Source: Candidatus Saccharimonadota bacterium (lineage in GTDB: Bacteria; Bacteroidota; Bacteroidia; Cytophagales; Amoebophilaceae). Taken from it: DNA of 32,000 bases. The stretch lies in assembly GCF_964030745.1 (NCBI RefSeq), contig NZ_OZ034918.1:750001-782000 (forward strand), given 5' to 3'. This document shows, piece after piece, positions 1-7,912 of this stretch. Each line of letters starts with the position of its first letter. Position 1 is the first letter of the stretch. A program made the translations under genes and the position numbers. The notes under the pieces are model-generated. The model was not told the origin of the DNA. It saw only the letters and a list, made by a program, of their open reading frames with translations, and did no database searches.

Positions 1-1220
1 TATTTGGTTCCCTTAGCCAATACGTTTTGCAGCCCACCAATGGCTACAATAGCAGTTAAAATAGGTATACCCATTACCGTATCTGATACAAAATGGTAGT
101 GCATAGCAATGATCAGCAGGAAAAAAGAGCCTCCCACTATCAGTGTGGTAACAGGCGTGATTAACGCTGCACCTAACCAATTTAATTTCCGAATCACTAT
201 GTTGCCAAAACAAGAACAAATTAATGTACAAACACCTGTCCAAAATAGGACCTTGCCTTGGTACGTGATAAAACTAGTAGGATCTTGCTTGTAAAAAAGA
301 CTGGTTTCATAAAACCAAAGCCCCTCTATTAAGTGCACAACCATAGAGTAAGAGATCATTAATATACAAATGAATGCGAGATATTTAGAACTGGAAATCA
401 TTCTAAAACTTTTATATAACCCCAGCTGTAGTGTAGTGGTTGTTCTGACCGATTCCGTTGCGCTGTACATAATATACTTTTCAATATATTTATGCAAAAG
501 TAGGATCAAGAAACATAAAAATGCAATCACGACCATAAGTGTAGCTATTTTTGGAGCTGCTTCTATTTTATACTTACCTATAAAGCGTAATAAAAAATGA
601 TCGGTACGAGAAAAGTAGACCATGATACTGCCAGAAATCAGCAGGTTGGCTTGTCCAATCAAGTTAAAAAAGAAGTAAAACCGACTGGCTTCTTCTGTGC
701 TAGTGATTTTATTGGCCAATTGCCAATACAATAGGGTAAAGACAATCATAGGCCACAGTTCACCTAGCATGTAGAAGAGTATTAATGTCCATTTTCCCCA
801 CATTACGAAAAACCATTTAAAATGGGGATAAAGTGTAATGTAGCCATCTACTCTACAGGGATCTGGATGTAATAGCGTTTGATAGGGAAATAAAAAAAAG
901 CCGAATAGTATAAAAAAAAAGAGAAAAAAAACTATAACGGCTCTAAAAATGGTTTCTGTGGTGTGTTTATTACATAAGATGGTATAAATCACTACAAACA
1001 GAACACCTGCCGGCATTTCGACAAATAGCTTAATAAAGCTCAATACTTCTGCGCCTATTAAGGTTACCACAAGCCCATCTTTTATGCCACGGATTAAATT
1101 TTGATTCAGTAGAATCAGAAACATCAAGGTGGCCATAGAAAAAAATTTATGCAGTGCACTGCCTTTAATGGGCCAGTGTATAGGATGCCATTTTTTTAGT
1201 AGAAGGGTTATTTGTTGCAT
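1..1220 (-). CDS. tlc: ATP/ADP (nucleotide) translocase, Tlc/NTT family; first ~406 codons, 3' end lies beyond the left window edge
   Basis: Absent from the supplied ORF track because it has no stop inside the window. Hand translation of the minus strand from ATG 1220 is uninterrupted down to nt 1: MQQITLLLKKWHPIHWPIKGSALHKFFSMATLMFLILLNQNLIRGIKDGLVVTLIGAEVLSFIKLFVEMPAGVLFVVIYTILCNKH...YMLGELWPMIVFTLLYWQLANKITSTEEASRFYFFFNLIGQANLLISG...GGLQNVLAKGTKY. The blocks LN..LIR..KD.LVV, GELW..LLYWQLAN.IT..EEA.RFY and QN.L.K.TKY are characteristic of Rickettsia/Chlamydia/plastid Tlc/NTT transporters. An upstream in-frame stop lies at 1278-1280. Confidence 0.85.
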   Translation of the reverse strand, partial: MQQITLLLKKWHPIHWPIKGSALHKFFSMATLMFLILLNQNLIRGIKDGLVVTLIGAEVLSFIKLFVEMPAGVLFVVIYTILCNKHTTETIFRAVIVFFLFFFILFGFFLFPYQTLLHPDPCRVDGYITLYPHFKWFFVMWGKWTLILFYMLGELWPMIVFTLLYWQLANKITSTEEASRFYFFFNLIGQANLLISGSIMVYFSRTDHFLLRFIGKYKIEAAPKIATLMVVIAFLCFLILLLHKYIEKYIMYSATESVRTTTTLQLGLYKSFRMISSSKYLAFICILMISYSMVVHLIEGLWFYETSLFYKQDPTSFITYQGKVLFWTGVCTLICSCFGNIVIRKLNWLGAALITPVTTLIVGGSFFLLIIAMHYHFVSDTVMGIPILTAIVAIGGLQNVLAKGTK

Positions 1221-1350
1221 ATTGATTTGTAGTGTATTAGACCTATTTTCCAAACTATGCGTTCGTATTTGTGCACGTCACTGGTTAATAATGAATTTTA
1301 TTCCACTTTTTTCTTGATAAAAAAGTGGACAAAAAATCAAGCCCTCGGCA

Positions 1351-1469
1351 AAAAGTTGGCGCCCCCACCCCTTACAGATGGAAAAACAGAAGTCGCCCGC
1401 TGTGCGGGCTTCAAAGGAATCTGTTTTTCCTAATCATCTGTAAGGGGTGGGGGCTGTTTCCCAACTTTT
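1351..1469. repeat. 119-nt nested palindrome built around a GC hairpin (gcccgc-tgt-gcgggc) followed by ttcaaa; core homologous to 12385-12440 and 20188-20261
   Basis: Perfect arms: aaaagttgg (1351-1359) / ccaactttt (1461-1469); gcccccaccccttacagatg (1361-1380) / catctgtaaggggtgggggc (1435-1454); gaaaaacaga (1381-1390) / tctgtttttc (1420-1429). The central stem is 1395-1400 / 1404-1409. It lies in the tlc-carrier spacer. Confidence 0.85.
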
Positions 1470-1470
1470 T

Positions 1471-1509
1471 ACAGGGGCATTTTACTGCTATGGCCATAGT
1501 GTTGAACGT
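1471..1509 (+). repeat. Short dispersed repeat module; inverted second copy at 20550-20588
   Basis: acaggggcattttactgctatggccatagtgttgaacgt aligns with the reverse complement of 20550-20588 (acagggacattttactactatgaccataaccttgaatgc). 31 of 39 positions are identical by hand alignment. The same similarity appears in the spurious ORF translations (LQGHFTAMAIVLNVY vs LQGHFTTMTITLNAY). Confidence 0.7.
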
Positions 1510-1597
1510 ATACATAAGTTCTGCTTGCTGCAACTTTTTACACAGGGCTTGATGGTTTGCTACTTTTTATCAAGCAAAAAAGTAGGGTATAACAACT

Positions 1598-2362
1598 TTA
1601 GGATTGCCCCAAGAAAAGCATTACAAGACTATGGGCAATAGAATAGGGAACAATTTGCAAAATGCGCATGGTTAATCCATTAAAGATTGCAAAAAACTTT
1701 TTTTCTACTGTAATATTATGCTTCAATCGACCGATCCAAGTCATGCGTACTTCTGATCCACAATTTTGTGTGGCGATCAGGTCAAATGGCATAGTTAAAG
1801 CCGATACAGCTATGCCCAATAAAGCGCTTACAACCATGTTGGCGCCTATTCCACTTATATCTTTTGTAAATTCATAAGCTAATATAGATGCAGAGCCACT
1901 TAGTATATTCCTTAAAAGAATGGGGGTCACAATGTCCATAACCCTTTCCTTGCGTTTCATTAAAGGGCCTTTATTGGCAGCAATTTCTTTTGTTTCGCTA
2001 TATATGGTCACCGCGGTTTCTACTATTCCTGCTAAAAAACATTCCCATATGACCAATAACGTAAAATTAGTTATTGCATAATAGCCAGTAGAACAAAGAA
2101 AAAGCCATTGTGAAATGCCAAAGGCTAAGGCGGCGATAAACTGTCGCAGTGCGTAGATATGCGCTCCGGAAAAGAATAATTTAAAATTTCTAGTACGTAT
2201 GCACCTTGTCACAATAGAGGCATACGATTCCCCTGTTTCTTGATAGACTACTTTTACAAATTGAGCAGGTGCCACTAGGTAGGCTACAATCATACAAGCT
2301 ATACCATGTGCAAGTGGATCAAAAAAAAAGCGATAAAGAAGTGTATTATGTTGCATAGTCAT
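1598..2362 (-). CDS. Divergent mitochondrial-carrier-family (MCF/SLC25)-like membrane protein, 254 aa
   Basis: There are three ~80-aa repeats, each with an odd helix, a degenerate P-x-[DE]-x-x-[KR] signature, a short loop, a G-containing motif and an even helix. Repeat 1: GIACMIVAYLVAPAQFVKVVYQ..SYASIVTRCIRT..FKLFFSGAHIYALRQFIAALAFGISQ. Repeat 2: LAGIVETAVTIYSETKEIAANKG...TPILLRNILSGSASILAYEFTK. Repeat 3: LLGIAVSALTMPFDLIATQ...FFAIFNGLTMRILQIVPYSIAHSLV. The spacing matches the MCF profile, but the salt-bridge residues are mostly replaced. Confidence 0.6.
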   Translation of the reverse strand: MTMQHNTLLYRFFFDPLAHGIACMIVAYLVAPAQFVKVVYQETGESYASIVTRCIRTRNFKLFFSGAHIYALRQFIAALAFGISQWLFLCSTGYYAITNFTLLVIWECFLAGIVETAVTIYSETKEIAANKGPLMKRKERVMDIVTPILLRNILSGSASILAYEFTKDISGIGANMVVSALLGIAVSALTMPFDLIATQNCGSEVRMTWIGRLKHNITVEKKFFAIFNGLTMRILQIVPYSIAHSLVMLFLGQS

Positions 2363-2626
2363 AGATGATTTGGTTCAAAGTTGCTTACTAGATGTTTTGC
2401 GAAACGCTGCTTTTGCTGGTAATTTGCCCGTTGATCCGGTGCTTAAGCCAAAGGAGCACGCAGTATGGCATAGGTAGATAAACGCAACCTGGGTTGCATT
2501 AAGATTGCACCTCACAAAATAGGCTTCCAAAGAGGGCTATTCAGTTGCTGTTGTATATGCTAAACTACCCCTTTGCCCAGGGGGGCGCTTTAAGTATTTT
2601 GCAACGGGTCTAGTACTAAACGATAA

Positions 2627-2675
2627 ATATAGTTCTTTAAAAGAACTATATCAACTTTATTGATCAATAAAGTTG
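2627..2675 (-). terminator. Two abutting perfect palindromes downstream of murC (probable terminator hairpins, or protein-binding sites)
   Basis: atatagttcttt-a-aaagaactatat (2627-2651) is immediately followed by caactttattga/tcaataaagttg (2652-2675). They start ~45 nt past the murC stop on the minus strand. Both stems are AT-rich and neither has a classic U-tract. Confidence 0.35.
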
Positions 2676-2720
2676 CAAAAAAGCAAGTACTGGTACAAAA
2701 AGTTTCTAAAAACTCAAGCT

Positions 2721-4186: not shown

Positions 4187-5140
4187 TTAGTTTTCCATAA
4201 GTTTTCCATTGAGTATTTCGATAGCTATACGCTTACGGAAGTAAGGCATGTCGTGTTGGGTGAAATTGATTGGTGCATCCCGCGCTACGTAGTCAGCAAA
4301 TTTGCATACAAATACACCACAATCACTATGATTCTTCTGCTGCGGTAGGTCTTTCAAGCATTTAAGCCGCCACTCATCTTGGTTCAGTTTCCCTTGTTGT
4401 TTGTCGGTTATTTCTTGACTAAGGTAGTCTAGCAACGTTTTTAGGCAATCCCAATTTTCTCCTCCTAGCGAATCATAATACTTTATAGTCTTGCTACGAA
4501 AATCAATAACTGCTAAACACCAATGGTTTGTTAGATGAACAGGGATAAGCACCATGTCATAGGAAAATATATTCTTACCTTTAGTCCATTTTTTCACTTT
4601 TGAATAGCCACTTTTGGAAAGTGATTGTAAAAAAAAGGTATTGAATGCACAAACCCTTGGTTGTAAGTGGTTTTCTTTTTCTTCTGATCGTCTGTTAATC
4701 AGCTGCATATATGCGTTTATTATATTGTCATTGAGCCAAGTCAACCCTTGTAACCGGATTAGATCTTGCTGCATAATGGGTATGCTTTCTACATTGGTAA
4801 TCAGTGTGCCAGTTGAGGTATTAAAGGCTTGTTCTACTTGGGCGAGCATCTCTTGAGTTAATATGACATTTTGTGGGTTCATCGATGGTTTTCCTGGCGC
4901 GCACGCTTGCCTATTTTCTATTTGAGGTTCCTTGTTTTTTTGTATACAGCTTGGTTGTATGTTTATTTTGTTGGCTGGTGGCAGGTGGCTCTTGTATGCG
5001 TTGTTTGCGTTGCTGTCAGTAGGTGTCATTGCGTTACTTATCCTATGATTTTTGTTCTTTTTGGTTGATTGCGTGCATAATCCAGCATAGAACATGGCAT
5101 AGAAAAAAAAGATCAATATAACAGAAAAATAGAATCTCAT
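4187..5140 (-). CDS. Ulp1/SENP-like cysteine protease (peptidase C48, clan CE) with N-terminal hydrophobic signal and a low-complexity linker
   Basis: All catalytic elements are in canonical order: LTNHWCLAVIDF (His), IKYYDSLGG (Asp), LPQQKNHSDCGVFVCKFADY (Gln + Cys nucleophile). The N-terminus from ATG 5140 reads MRFYFSVILIFFFYAMFYAGLCTQS. The ORF track uses a TTG at 5158. Confidence 0.85.
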   Translation of the reverse strand: MRFYFSVILIFFFYAMFYAGLCTQSTKKNKNHRISNAMTPTDSNANNAYKSHLPPANKINIQPSCIQKNKEPQIENRQACAPGKPSMNPQNVILTQEMLAQVEQAFNTSTGTLITNVESIPIMQQDLIRLQGLTWLNDNIINAYMQLINRRSEEKENHLQPRVCAFNTFFLQSLSKSGYSKVKKWTKGKNIFSYDMVLIPVHLTNHWCLAVIDFRSKTIKYYDSLGGENWDCLKTLLDYLSQEITDKQQGKLNQDEWRLKCLKDLPQQKNHSDCGVFVCKFADYVARDAPINFTQHDMPYFRKRIAIEILNGKLMEN

Positions 5141-5344
5141 AAAACTGTGCGGTTTCAATAAAAATGCTACAAAAAAATAATTTGTAATTATATTAAAATA
5201 TTTGGTAACCTGAGTCGTTCTGGATTGGATTATTTTTTAGATCTGATAACCAATATGAATAAAAACTGTTTTGATTTGGTTCATATAAATTAATTTGAAT
5301 AGACGACCTATAAATAAATGATTATGGTTATCAGTGAATTATAT

Positions 5345-6736: not shown

Positions 6737-7912
6737 TTATTGCTTTCTAAAATTCCCTGTATTTTTATATGCCTGTACCATACTGGTGACCCACCATCTT
6801 ATAGGCGCTAAGCTATGCACTATAACGAACGATAGGGCTAGTGGTACAATACCGCAATGCTGCTCTATCAGTAACGCACTAAAAAGCCAAATGACAATAG
6901 GCAAATCTATTAAGAGCATATACAATGCTGTTAATAGATAGCAGCCATAATTGGCCTTGCCACCACCCACCATTTTTATTAAATAAGCTTTGTCATGGCT
7001 TATTAAACTATCTAATAGCCAAGTTAATCCTAAAAAGATAAAAAACTGCTGAATGCCTAGTTTAAATCGATGGGTTTGTAAAATCTTAGCTGGCTTTATC
7101 TGCAATCCCAACATGACTACAGCTGCAATAGAAAGCATTACCAGTGCAAAAAATATAGGAAATCTAACCGGGTAAATCTTGCCACTTAGTTCAGTATATC
7201 TATTGGATTCAGGTTTGATAACTAAAAATAGTAGTGCAGCCAGTAGTAAAAGCACAAAGAGCCCTTTCATTTTACCTGTTGGTACAGTGGCTACCTGCTC
7301 ATCATTACCTTGAGGAGGGTTCTGAGCTTCTTTACATAGTGGTATCAGCCATTTATTGGGCATAAGGCTGGCCAGCAAGCTACTGACCATTGTGAGGCCG
7401 ACTGTGGTGGCAACTATGACCCCTATCAAAGCTAGAGTAGGAAATCCACTATTTCTTGCCACCACTATGAGCGGTATGCCTGAAATAGATAAAGGACTTG
7501 CCAGTAGCGCCATATGCGCAGCAATGGTGATAGGAACAAATAGCCGTGCTTTGTCGCTATGGAGCCCATTTTGATCGCATAGAGATGGCTGTAGCCATTT
7601 TTTATCTCCTGTTAAAAAGACCAATCCATAGCAAAACAGCGCAATCAAAAACCCATAATGATAATGGACCTGTTCTATACAGGCCCTGAGTTTGGTTTGC
7701 AGGAGATAAAAAAAACCAGCGGCTTCTAATGTGGACATTAGAAGAAACCAGGTGGTCTGTAAGAGCATTAAGTCATTAGGGGGAGCTGTAGGTTGGACTG
7801 AAAAAGTTAACAGTCCTAAGCCCAATCCGCTCAATAGACCAATCGAGACCCCACCTAAGCGTAAACCTATTATAAGCAGCAATAGGAGCATCAGCCATCC
7901 AATTGTAATCAT
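6737..7912 (-). CDS. Divergent, shortened paralogue of the DcuA/DcuB C4-dicarboxylate transporter family
   Basis: Polytopic membrane protein. Its N-terminus MITIGWLMLLLLLIIGLRLGGVSIGLLSGLGLGLL parallels that of the upstream gene (LLIGLAILLLASFLGSRLQGMSLSMLGGLGVWLF). It has 391 aa versus 433 aa and is separated from the upstream gene by 29 nt. Confidence 0.6.
   Translation of the reverse strand: MITIGWLMLLLLLIIGLRLGGVSIGLLSGLGLGLLTFSVQPTAPPNDLMLLQTTWFLLMSTLEAAGFFYLLQTKLRACIEQVHYHYGFLIALFCYGLVFLTGDKKWLQPSLCDQNGLHSDKARLFVPITIAAHMALLASPLSISGIPLIVVARNSGFPTLALIGVIVATTVGLTMVSSLLASLMPNKWLIPLCKEAQNPPQGNDEQVATVPTGKMKGLFVLLLLAALLFLVIKPESNRYTELSGKIYPVRFPIFFALVMLSIAAVVMLGLQIKPAKILQTHRFKLGIQQFFIFLGLTWLLDSLISHDKAYLIKMVGGGKANYGCYLLTALYMLLIDLPIVIWLFSALLIEQHCGIVPLALSFVIVHSLAPIRWWVTSMVQAYKNTGNFRKQ

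Follow-up and report, generated by a model that had tools for sequence, protein, structure and literature searches.

A compact, highly derived mitochondrial-carrier homologue encoded ahead of the ATP/ADP translocase gene tlc in Cardinium, a candidate carrier of the symbiont's own inner membrane

Results

A carrier gene ahead of tlc

The 32,000-nucleotide stretch analysed here as a whole (positions 750,001 to 782,000 of contig NZ_OZ034918.1, hereafter the window) carries a complete open reading frame (ORF) for a 254-amino-acid protein of the mitochondrial carrier family (MCF, or SLC25), followed on the same strand by tlc, the gene of the ATP/ADP translocase. An earlier note, made from the letters of this DNA, had proposed both the family and the arrangement, and both are borne out. 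The protein matches Pfam PF00153 (Mito_carr) significantly, at 38.9 bits for a cutoff of 22.3 (E=7.4e-10), with two stretches that pass; its profile matches and predicted fold, described below, agree; and exactly 377 bp separate it from a gene whose own matches identify it as tlc (Table 1). The window is a segment of the chromosome of a Cardinium, an endosymbiont of an insect or arachnid, since the close homologues recovered with the carrier belong to Cardinium and Amoebophilaceae and the best locus match, at 92%, is to the Cardinium endosymbiont of Oedothorax gibbosus. A protein search gave 24 close homologues in these groups, all of about 252 amino acids, 46-93% identical and all labelled hypothetical, and a scan of species-representative genomes, queried with a 13-sequence alignment (A3, a subset of the family alignment A2), located the gene in eight Cardinium/Amoebophilaceae genomes and two Rickettsiales. 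Its GC content is that of its surroundings. A scan for sigma-70 promoters and terminators around the gene, which does not cover Bacteroidota promoters, returned counts within shuffled expectation, and neither a riboswitch nor any other Rfam family turned up when the spacers on its two sides were scanned.

Table 1. Coordinates of the carrier locus, in window positions
Feature	Position	Strand	Details
MCF gene (254-aa ORF, complete)	1598..2362	-	ATG start; stop codon 1598-1600; PF00153, structural model, dN/dS
tlc/NTT, ATP/ADP translocase, 5' part (406 aa)	1..1220	-	PF03219 E=3.5e-101; TIGR00769 E=2.2e-81; ATG at 1220; runs off window start
MCF-tlc intergenic spacer, 377 bp	1221..1597		Nested palindromic repeat element
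Non-coding region, murC to MCF gene	2363..2720	-	One sigma-70-like site, 2654..2626, 10/12 matches
Repeat 1 (aa 6-97)	2072..2347	-	H1 P32-A-Q-F-V-K37...Q41; short matrix helix; FFSG66; H2 R73-Q74 at contact point I; best Pfam stretch aa 17-81
Repeat 2 (aa 98-170), degenerate	1853..2071	-	H3 invariant E115-T116 and Y121-S-E-T-K-E126; 10-residue loop; H4 family-invariant R151-N152 and Y163-E-F-T-K167
Repeat 3 (aa 171-254)	1601..1852	-	H5 P192-F-D194-L-I-A197; matrix helix; FNG229; H6 R233 and Q236; aligned to Ggc1, AAC3 and TtAac repeat 3

A derived carrier fold with a degenerate middle repeat

The protein is a genuine SLC25 homologue with a highly derived six-helix carrier fold, and it is not a canonical carrier. 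Searched against the PDB as a single sequence it returned no match, and the narrow profile of alignment A1 gave insignificant ones only; the broader A2 profile of 40 sequences was needed, and it matched Ggc1 (the yeast GTP/GDP carrier) at 3.1e-9, OGC at 3.6e-6 and AAC3 at 6.7e-6. A first AlphaFold model, built on 24 close homologues, was mediocre (predicted local distance difference test, pLDDT, 76), with UCP1 and the ADP/ATP carrier already as its best PDB matches. The AlphaFold (AF2) model obtained with the 40-sequence alignment, which includes distant relatives, reached a pLDDT of 91.5 and a predicted template modelling (TM) score of 0.87, and shows six long helices. When it was compared with the PDB using Foldseek, the top 11 matches were all SLC25 structures (probability 1.00, TM score 0.53-0.72), among them UCP1, a Tetrahymena oxoglutarate/malate-type carrier and the yeast carriers AAC2 and AAC3, and the best fold outside SLC25 had a TM score of 0.26. 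Neither of the outcomes that the earlier note had named as fatal to its call, the want of a significant PF00153 or SLC25 match and a different six-helix topology, was seen.

The three-unit layout proposed from the sequence holds in part. Repeats 1 and 3 are homologous to each other, with E=1.4e-4 over 81 columns when the family alignment is split and compared with hhalign, whereas repeat 2 bears no significant likeness to the other two (E=0.03 and 0.08) and its profile has no PDB match at a threshold as lax as E<=10; it is the predicted structure that argues for repeat 2 as the third carrier unit. In the model, repeat 1 consists of helices at residues 2-43, 47-56, 61-65 and 67-94, and repeat 3 of helices at 172-200, 209-218, 223-227 and 230-253, so that the short matrix helices h12 (47-56 and 61-65) and h56 (209-218 and 223-227) are both predicted. 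Repeat 2 has a helix at 100-134, a loop of 10 residues (135-144) and a helix at 145-166, with no h34 matrix helix, and this missing helix would make up much of the shortfall of about 50 residues relative to canonical carriers. The modelled chain ends 1-3 residues past H6, leaving no C-terminal tail.

A compact family in two bacterial phyla

An exhaustive search of 1.84 billion cluster representatives with a hidden Markov model retrieved 46 proteins at E<=1e-3. About 40 of these are full-length (roughly 240-275 amino acids), several are fragments, and the weakest four resemble carriers of canonical length; PF00153 is matched individually by 35 of the 40 aligned family members. The compact clade (about 250 amino acids) was seen here on bacterial contigs only, in Amoebophilaceae and Rickettsiales. 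Its named members come from Cardinium, Amoebophilaceae, Candidatus Xenolissoclinum (two tandem paralogues), Candidatus Xenohaliotis, Anaplasmataceae bacterium AB001_6 and coral-associated Rickettsiales, the Anaplasmataceae relatives being 26-36% identical and sometimes arranged in tandem pairs. Most of the distant homologues are found in metagenome and Sequence Read Archive assemblies, on contigs whose neighbouring genes are typically alphaproteobacterial or endosymbiont ones. The window protein has all the motifs of the clade besides its length: PxQFxK...Q(E)T on H1, ET...Y.E.KEI..NKG around H3, RN on H4, PFD..(A)T..CG on H5 and G..(M)R.(I)Q on H6 (alignments A1, A2 and A3).

In a neighbour-joining tree the family is monophyletic (100/100 replicates), and the Cardinium/Amoebophilaceae clade (96/100) is nested within Rickettsiales-type diversity (97/100), in agreement with the report of Brown et al. 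that the nearest matches outside Cardinium are in Neorickettsia, a genus whose membership in the compact clade rests on that BLAST statement. Because the Cardinium clade lies inside a Rickettsiales-type family, transfer from one bacterium to another is likelier than transfer from an amoeba to Cardinium, and the Amoebophilaceae copy was probably acquired from a Rickettsiales-type lineage. The direct amoeba-to-bacterium route, for which the earlier note had suggested a phylogeny, appears unlikely on this tree.

Gating motifs and the putative substrate site

Carrier gates are defined by the motifs Px[DE]xx[KR]xxxQ on the matrix side and [YF][DE]xx[KR] on the cytoplasmic side (PMC7611774). The segments PAQFVK, YSETKE and PFDLIA that had been singled out from the sequence are present, at P32-K37, Y121-E126 and P192-A197, and the signature charged residues are indeed largely substituted. 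The matrix-side residues are Q34, K37 and Q41 on H1, E123, E126 and N130 on H3, and D194, A197 and C201 on H5. On H1 the acid is replaced by glutamine (Q34), while K37 and the glutamine brace Q41 are kept; none of the three helices conforms to the matrix-gate signature, and the sole salt bridge that could form, one of three, is between D194 (H5) and K37 (H1). On the cytoplasmic side the motif is canonical on H4 only (again one of three), H2 reading S-Q-W-L-F and H6 stopping short, so that no inter-helix salt bridge is possible on this face. The H4 motif is retained in the Cardinium clade, and the substitutions are fixed across the whole family of about 40 members in two phyla rather than in Cardinium alone.

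In HMMER alignments, R73 falls on the arginine of contact point I (repeat 1 of AAC3 and other carriers) and Q236 on the arginine of contact point III, with R233 lying a turn deeper. The pair R151-N152 precedes Y163-E164 by 12-13 residues, in the register of contact point II, and aligns with an Arg-Asn at the contact point of a symmetry-related OGC repeat. R151, N152, E115, T116 and R233 are invariant or nearly so in the 40 sequences, across both phyla. According to the code described for contact point II, G[IVLM] marks nucleotide carriers, R[QHNT] carboxylate carriers and R[DE] amino acid carriers, and RN is the pair found in UCP2 and AtUCP1/2, whose substrates are aspartate, glutamate, malate, oxaloacetate, phosphate and sulfate (PMC6769469).

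Alignment A2 also contains a clade-specific swap: the Cardinium-type members, and P0025 with them, have R73 on H2 and W106 on H3, and most Rickettsiales-type members have a hydrophobic residue in the R73 column and an arginine in the W106 column. As read from the alignment, the swap may mean that a charge in the cavity has moved, or that the substrates differ.

Strong purifying selection

Codon-level comparison with nine orthologues gave the carrier gene a ratio of nonsynonymous to synonymous divergence (dN/dS) of 0.06-0.14, with dS of up to about 1.4-1.8, the larger values being near saturation. For the same pairs of genomes the ratio is 0.09-0.16 for tlc and 0.19-0.22 for murC, which makes the carrier gene the more constrained of these neighbours. 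Each Cardinium/Amoebophilaceae locus that was examined has a full-length ORF, and the 24 orthologues have 45 invariant positions in common. The substitutions in the gating motifs are ancient and family-wide, not recent damage.

A conserved pair with tlc, and a palindromic insertion

All nine Amoebophilaceae loci with enough flanking sequence show the carrier gene directly followed by tlc on the same strand, and their upstream neighbours vary. The shortest spacer between the two genes in the other genomes, about 17 bp, belongs to Cardinium of Nabis limbatus, and the longest measures about 360 bp. The 377-bp spacer of the window is almost wholly a nested palindrome (core at about 1292-1583), with a minimum free energy of -142.8 kcal/mol and z=-10.4. 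Copies of this palindrome, which resembles a miniature inverted-repeat transposable element, recur in intergenic positions of the window (20546-20590) and, in other Cardinium genomes, of loci L001 (3324-3404), L002 (4098-4218 and 8429-8621), L003 (33-124 and 1547-1641) and L008 (8427-8523). The spacer is thus wide for a secondary reason: a small repeat element, pieces of which turn up between genes elsewhere and which takes up nearly all of the spacer, was inserted into a gene pair that was tight ancestrally. Two Rfam matches to the plant microRNA family MIR9486, on both strands and far below the gathering score, were rejected as hairpin artefacts of the palindrome.

The context of the Rickettsiales homologues is not conserved across loci. 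In L012 the carrier gene follows two SDF-family symporter genes (SDF-SDF-MCF, gaps of 42-48 bp), in L014 it stands between yajC and the gene of an ABC ATPase with a gap of 8 bp, and L009, L015 and L020 contain tandem carrier paralogues. In the most basal branch of the family it lies just downstream of hemE, the gene of uroporphyrinogen decarboxylase, in two different genomes (L019, 3146-5750; L020, 3927-6579), and in L020 the tandem duplicates are followed by a GCV_T/YgfZ-like gene.

Discussion

We favour the view that the gene encodes a functional, derived SLC25-fold carrier residing in the symbiont's own inner membrane, with a small anion as substrate and an ancestral co-transcription with tlc. 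The carrier would be native to the bacterial membrane, its compact clade having spread among Rickettsiales and Amoebophilaceae and having entered an operonic pairing with tlc in Cardinium. We put the probability of this reading at about 0.45, roughly even odds. Several observations converge on the membrane of the symbiont itself. Cardinium has been reported to lack type III, type IV or any other known protein secretion system, apart from a contractile injection device resembling the antifeeding prophage (AFP) (PMC3486910). The protein has no C-terminal tail in the model. All six helices are strongly hydrophobic, and the grand average of hydropathicity has a family mean of 0.67 (0.41-0.97), as compared with -0.2 to 0.38 in canonical-like carriers (n=4). 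The loops on the matrix side hold 15 lysines and arginines and those on the other side two, which by the positive-inside rule would place the 'matrix' face in the bacterial cytoplasm. Together with the close linkage, on the same strand, to transporter genes (tlc, SDF, the ABC ATPase) and with an evolution slower than that of the neighbouring genes, these features favour a location in the symbiont's own membrane, and for the same reasons the export to a host organelle envisaged in the earlier note is not supported.

On this account the carrier would be inserted co-translationally into the inner membrane of the symbiont, both of its termini in the periplasm and its Lys/Arg-rich loops in the cytoplasm; seen from the host cytosol, it would be oriented as a carrier in a mitochondrion is. 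It would move a small anionic metabolite between host cytosol and symbiont, and its ancestral co-transcription with tlc would make it part of the symbiont's import toolkit. A plausible, if speculative, example of such a role would be the movement of phosphate or C4 acids to balance the exchange of ATP and ADP by Tlc. The near absence of gating networks could translate into a cycle with low energy barriers, uniport-like or loosely coupled, as extrapolated from the network model (PMC7611774).

A number of points weigh against this reading. Location and substrate are, for every member of the family, deduced from sequence and model. The only bacterial MCF protein that has been characterised, LncP, is an effector that its bacterium secretes and that becomes inserted into the mitochondria of the host (PMC3252375), and a two-step type IV route via the inner membrane has been proposed, so that high hydrophobicity is compatible with secretion (PMC12981334). 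Most members of the family are found in Rickettsiales that bear type IV secretion systems; in Anaplasmataceae bacterium AB001_6 (L013, 1-5756) the carrier gene comes a few genes after virB10, virB11 and virD4 on the same strand, in L016 the homologue adjoins an ankyrin-repeat gene, and the window itself is rich in eukaryote-like putative effectors (an Ulp1 protease, an mTERF-like protein). The comparison set for hydrophobicity is four canonical-like sequences, and the tree is a crude, distance-based one rooted on four arbitrary canonical-like carriers. The assignment of R151-N152 to contact point II follows from their register and from their alignment with a symmetry-related repeat, rather than from aligning H4 to H4. 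A strong hairpin now separates the carrier gene from tlc, making co-transcription in the window uncertain. Finally, the sequence best matched in the PDB is that of a nucleotide carrier (Ggc1, 3.1e-9), and the nearest eukaryotic BLAST match in Brown et al. is SCaMC-1, an ATP-Mg/Pi carrier (PMC6232779).

The foremost competing explanation, which we consider unlikely without taking it lightly, is that of an effector like LncP, exported from the symbiont, imported through the host TOM and TIM22 complexes and lodged in the inner membrane of host mitochondria, where it would alter the flux of metabolites or ATP in favour of the symbiont, a product that tlc would then harvest. The precedent is direct, LncP being translocated by the Dot/Icm system and assembling within the inner mitochondrial membrane (PMC3252375), and the SLC25 fold is at home in mitochondria; the Rickettsiales that hold most of the family generally carry a type IV system, one copy stands near the vir genes mentioned above, another, in L016, has an ankyrin-repeat neighbour, and eukaryote-like genes lie nearby in the window. 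LncP and the Cardinium protein are alike in being SLC25 homologues of intracellular bacteria, and LncP too is thought to be ultimately of eukaryotic origin. Yet LncP, as described, has the length of a canonical carrier, extends beyond eukaryotic carriers at its C-terminus and needs the type IV (Dot/Icm) system, whereas the Cardinium protein is some 50 residues shorter, ends at H6 with no free C-terminus and has a degenerate repeat 2; removal of the last five residues of LncP did not block its translocation. We know of no six-helix membrane protein carried by an AFP-like contractile device, the one candidate export machinery reported for Cardinium. Moreover, the protein is far more hydrophobic than canonical-like carriers, its degenerate middle repeat and missing cytoplasmic motifs set it apart from the carriers that TIM22 usually handles, its evolution is slower than that of housekeeping neighbours, which would be atypical of an effector, and it holds a conserved, operon-like position among bacterial transporter genes. 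Type IV secretion genes were not found in the 32-kb window, which is too short to show their absence from the genome. Neither the 46 representatives of the family nor the 24 close homologues include a Legionella protein. In L013 a gene for a FliI-like ATPase and rpmJ lie between the vir genes and the carrier gene, and genes for FliH-like and FliN-like proteins lie downstream.

The invariant Arg-Asn of contact point II and the cavity arginines R73 and R233 suggest a small anionic substrate, such as a carboxylate, an acidic amino acid or phosphate, and fit it better than they fit adenine nucleotides. The earlier note had imagined a nucleotide-scavenging module, and a carrier of a nucleotide or nucleotide-like cofactor in the symbiont's own membrane, for instance exchanging net adenine nucleotide for phosphate as ATP-Mg/Pi carriers do, deserves to be weighed even though we regard it as improbable. 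It would provide the net gain of nucleotides that a strict ATP/ADP exchanger cannot, to an organism unable to make them (PMC3486910), and it would fit the conserved pairing with tlc, the ATP transport by LncP (PMC3252375) and the matches to SCaMC-1 (PMC6232779) and to Ggc1, which like the Cardinium protein has a basic residue at the fourth position past the H6 glycine. Against it, contact point II reads Arg-Asn and not G[IVLM], and Cardinium already encodes four NTT paralogues (PMC3486910). The Rickettsiales members occur without tlc, one genome having the carrier gene behind dicarboxylate/amino-acid symporter genes, and the PDB ranking that puts Ggc1 first is shallow (3e-9 versus 4e-6) and comes mostly from repeat 3.

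Less probable still is a role other than transport, in which alternating access would no longer be used and the protein would serve, for example, as a membrane-protein insertase, lipid scramblase or leak channel in the manner of MTCH2 or SLC25A46. The loss of two of three matrix salt bridges and two of three cytoplasmic motifs, a repeat 2 that cannot be recognised by sequence, and weak profile matches to an MTCH2-UCP1 chimera (E=0.53 with the narrow A1 profile, E=0.045 with A2) could be taken in its favour. However, these matches fall short of significance and lie over PFDL, a segment that all carriers share, the model keeps all six helices, and the polar and charged cluster at the centre (R73, E115, R151, N152, R233 and Q236) is conserved at the level of the canonical substrate site, as would be expected of a protein that binds a solute. 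We therefore rejected an MTCH2-like insertase as the leading explanation. The idea that the gene is the decaying remnant of a horizontally acquired eukaryotic carrier, for which the substituted motifs could speak and of which the earlier note had raised the decay, is refuted by full-length ORFs at all orthologous loci, by a dN/dS below that of tlc and murC, on which we rejected a pseudogene, by the fixation of the same substitutions in a family that spans two phyla and by a GC content matching the surroundings.

Returning to the carrier as a transporter of the symbiont's inner membrane, its closest structural counterparts are UCP1 (E=9.5e-5, TM score 0.66-0.67) and the Tetrahymena OGC (TM score 0.72), and it shares the Arg-Asn pair at contact point II with UCP2 and AtUCP1/2. 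It differs from carriers of the UCP/OGC type in its identity of 11-15%, in the loss of two of three matrix pairs and of the whole inter-helix cytoplasmic network, in lacking h34 and in having a glutamine at contact point III with an arginine one turn deeper. A most divergent middle repeat is also a trait of Legionella Lpg1137, a very divergent SLC25-like effector (Gradowski and Pawlowski 2017), which belongs to a separate and far more distant lineage and is a Dot/Icm substrate.

The existence of the gene in Cardinium and Rickettsiales was already known, and the window gene is a new orthologue of a reported, uncharacterised bacterial group. Brown et al. 2018 (PMC6232779) list a core Cardinium 'mitochondrial carrier protein', cPpe_01095 and its orthologues, with an identity of 66-67% from one strain to another, closest to Neorickettsia and put forward as a possible case of horizontal transfer. 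It is apparently the same orthologue group, matched here by its description, and the group-B-like homologues are 67-69% identical to the window protein; Brown et al. list the gene only, with no structure, motif analysis, linkage to tlc, delineation of the family or hypothesis of localisation. Dolezal et al. 2012 (PMC3252375) described LncP and noted two MCF proteins in Neorickettsia sennetsu, and Gradowski and Pawlowski 2017 recorded Pfam Mito_carr members in Chlamydiales, Rickettsiales and Legionellales; like the Cardinium gene, the entries from N. sennetsu and other Rickettsiales are uncharacterised PF00153 homologues of obligate intracellular bacteria. The original Cardinium genome paper has a transporter table without the gene. 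In the literature we found, the compact clade, seen here in bacteria only, its degenerate middle repeat and its invariant RN site are apparently undescribed, and so are the conserved pairing with tlc and the argument for a location in the symbiont's own membrane.

Mitochondrial carriers are treated as a eukaryotic invention. Here the SLC25 fold appears as a slowly evolving core gene of a symbiont, placed before the transporter of its energy parasitism and with no known route of export. Prior reports of the gene limit the surprise, but a carrier that truly resides in the symbiont's membrane would be the first MCF protein native to a bacterial membrane and a striking case of convergence between endosymbiont and organelle. 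It would mean that obligate endosymbionts recruited carriers of the organelle type for the exchange of metabolites with their hosts, a testable parallel to the integration of mitochondria. The family also constitutes a natural minimal SLC25, with 250 amino acids, one matrix salt bridge and no cytoplasmic network, on which models of how gating separates exchange from uniport could be tried.

Other features of the window

Three consecutive plus-strand ORFs of 262-377 amino acids (19241-20029, 20732-21865 and 22021-22863) lie in a region of strongly positive GC skew and have no Pfam match at E<=1e-5. Between a glycosyltransferase gene and murC, on the minus strand (4187-5158), a 323-amino-acid protein with an Ulp1/SUMO-protease C48 domain (E=2e-46) is a eukaryote-like, putative host-interaction protein; tblastn gave no match to it in the flanks of the other Cardinium loci examined. 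A protein of 909 amino acids (9452-12181, minus strand) weakly matches Pfam mTERF (25.9 bits for a cutoff of 23.1, E=5.7e-6), a eukaryotic, organelle-associated repeat family, and may be a eukaryote-like effector. Lastly, two tandem paralogues of DcuA/DcuB C4-dicarboxylate transporters are encoded on the minus strand (6737-7912 and 7942-9243), a pair also present in L002, and the downstream copy is much the more divergent of the two (Pfam E=4e-23 versus 4e-96).

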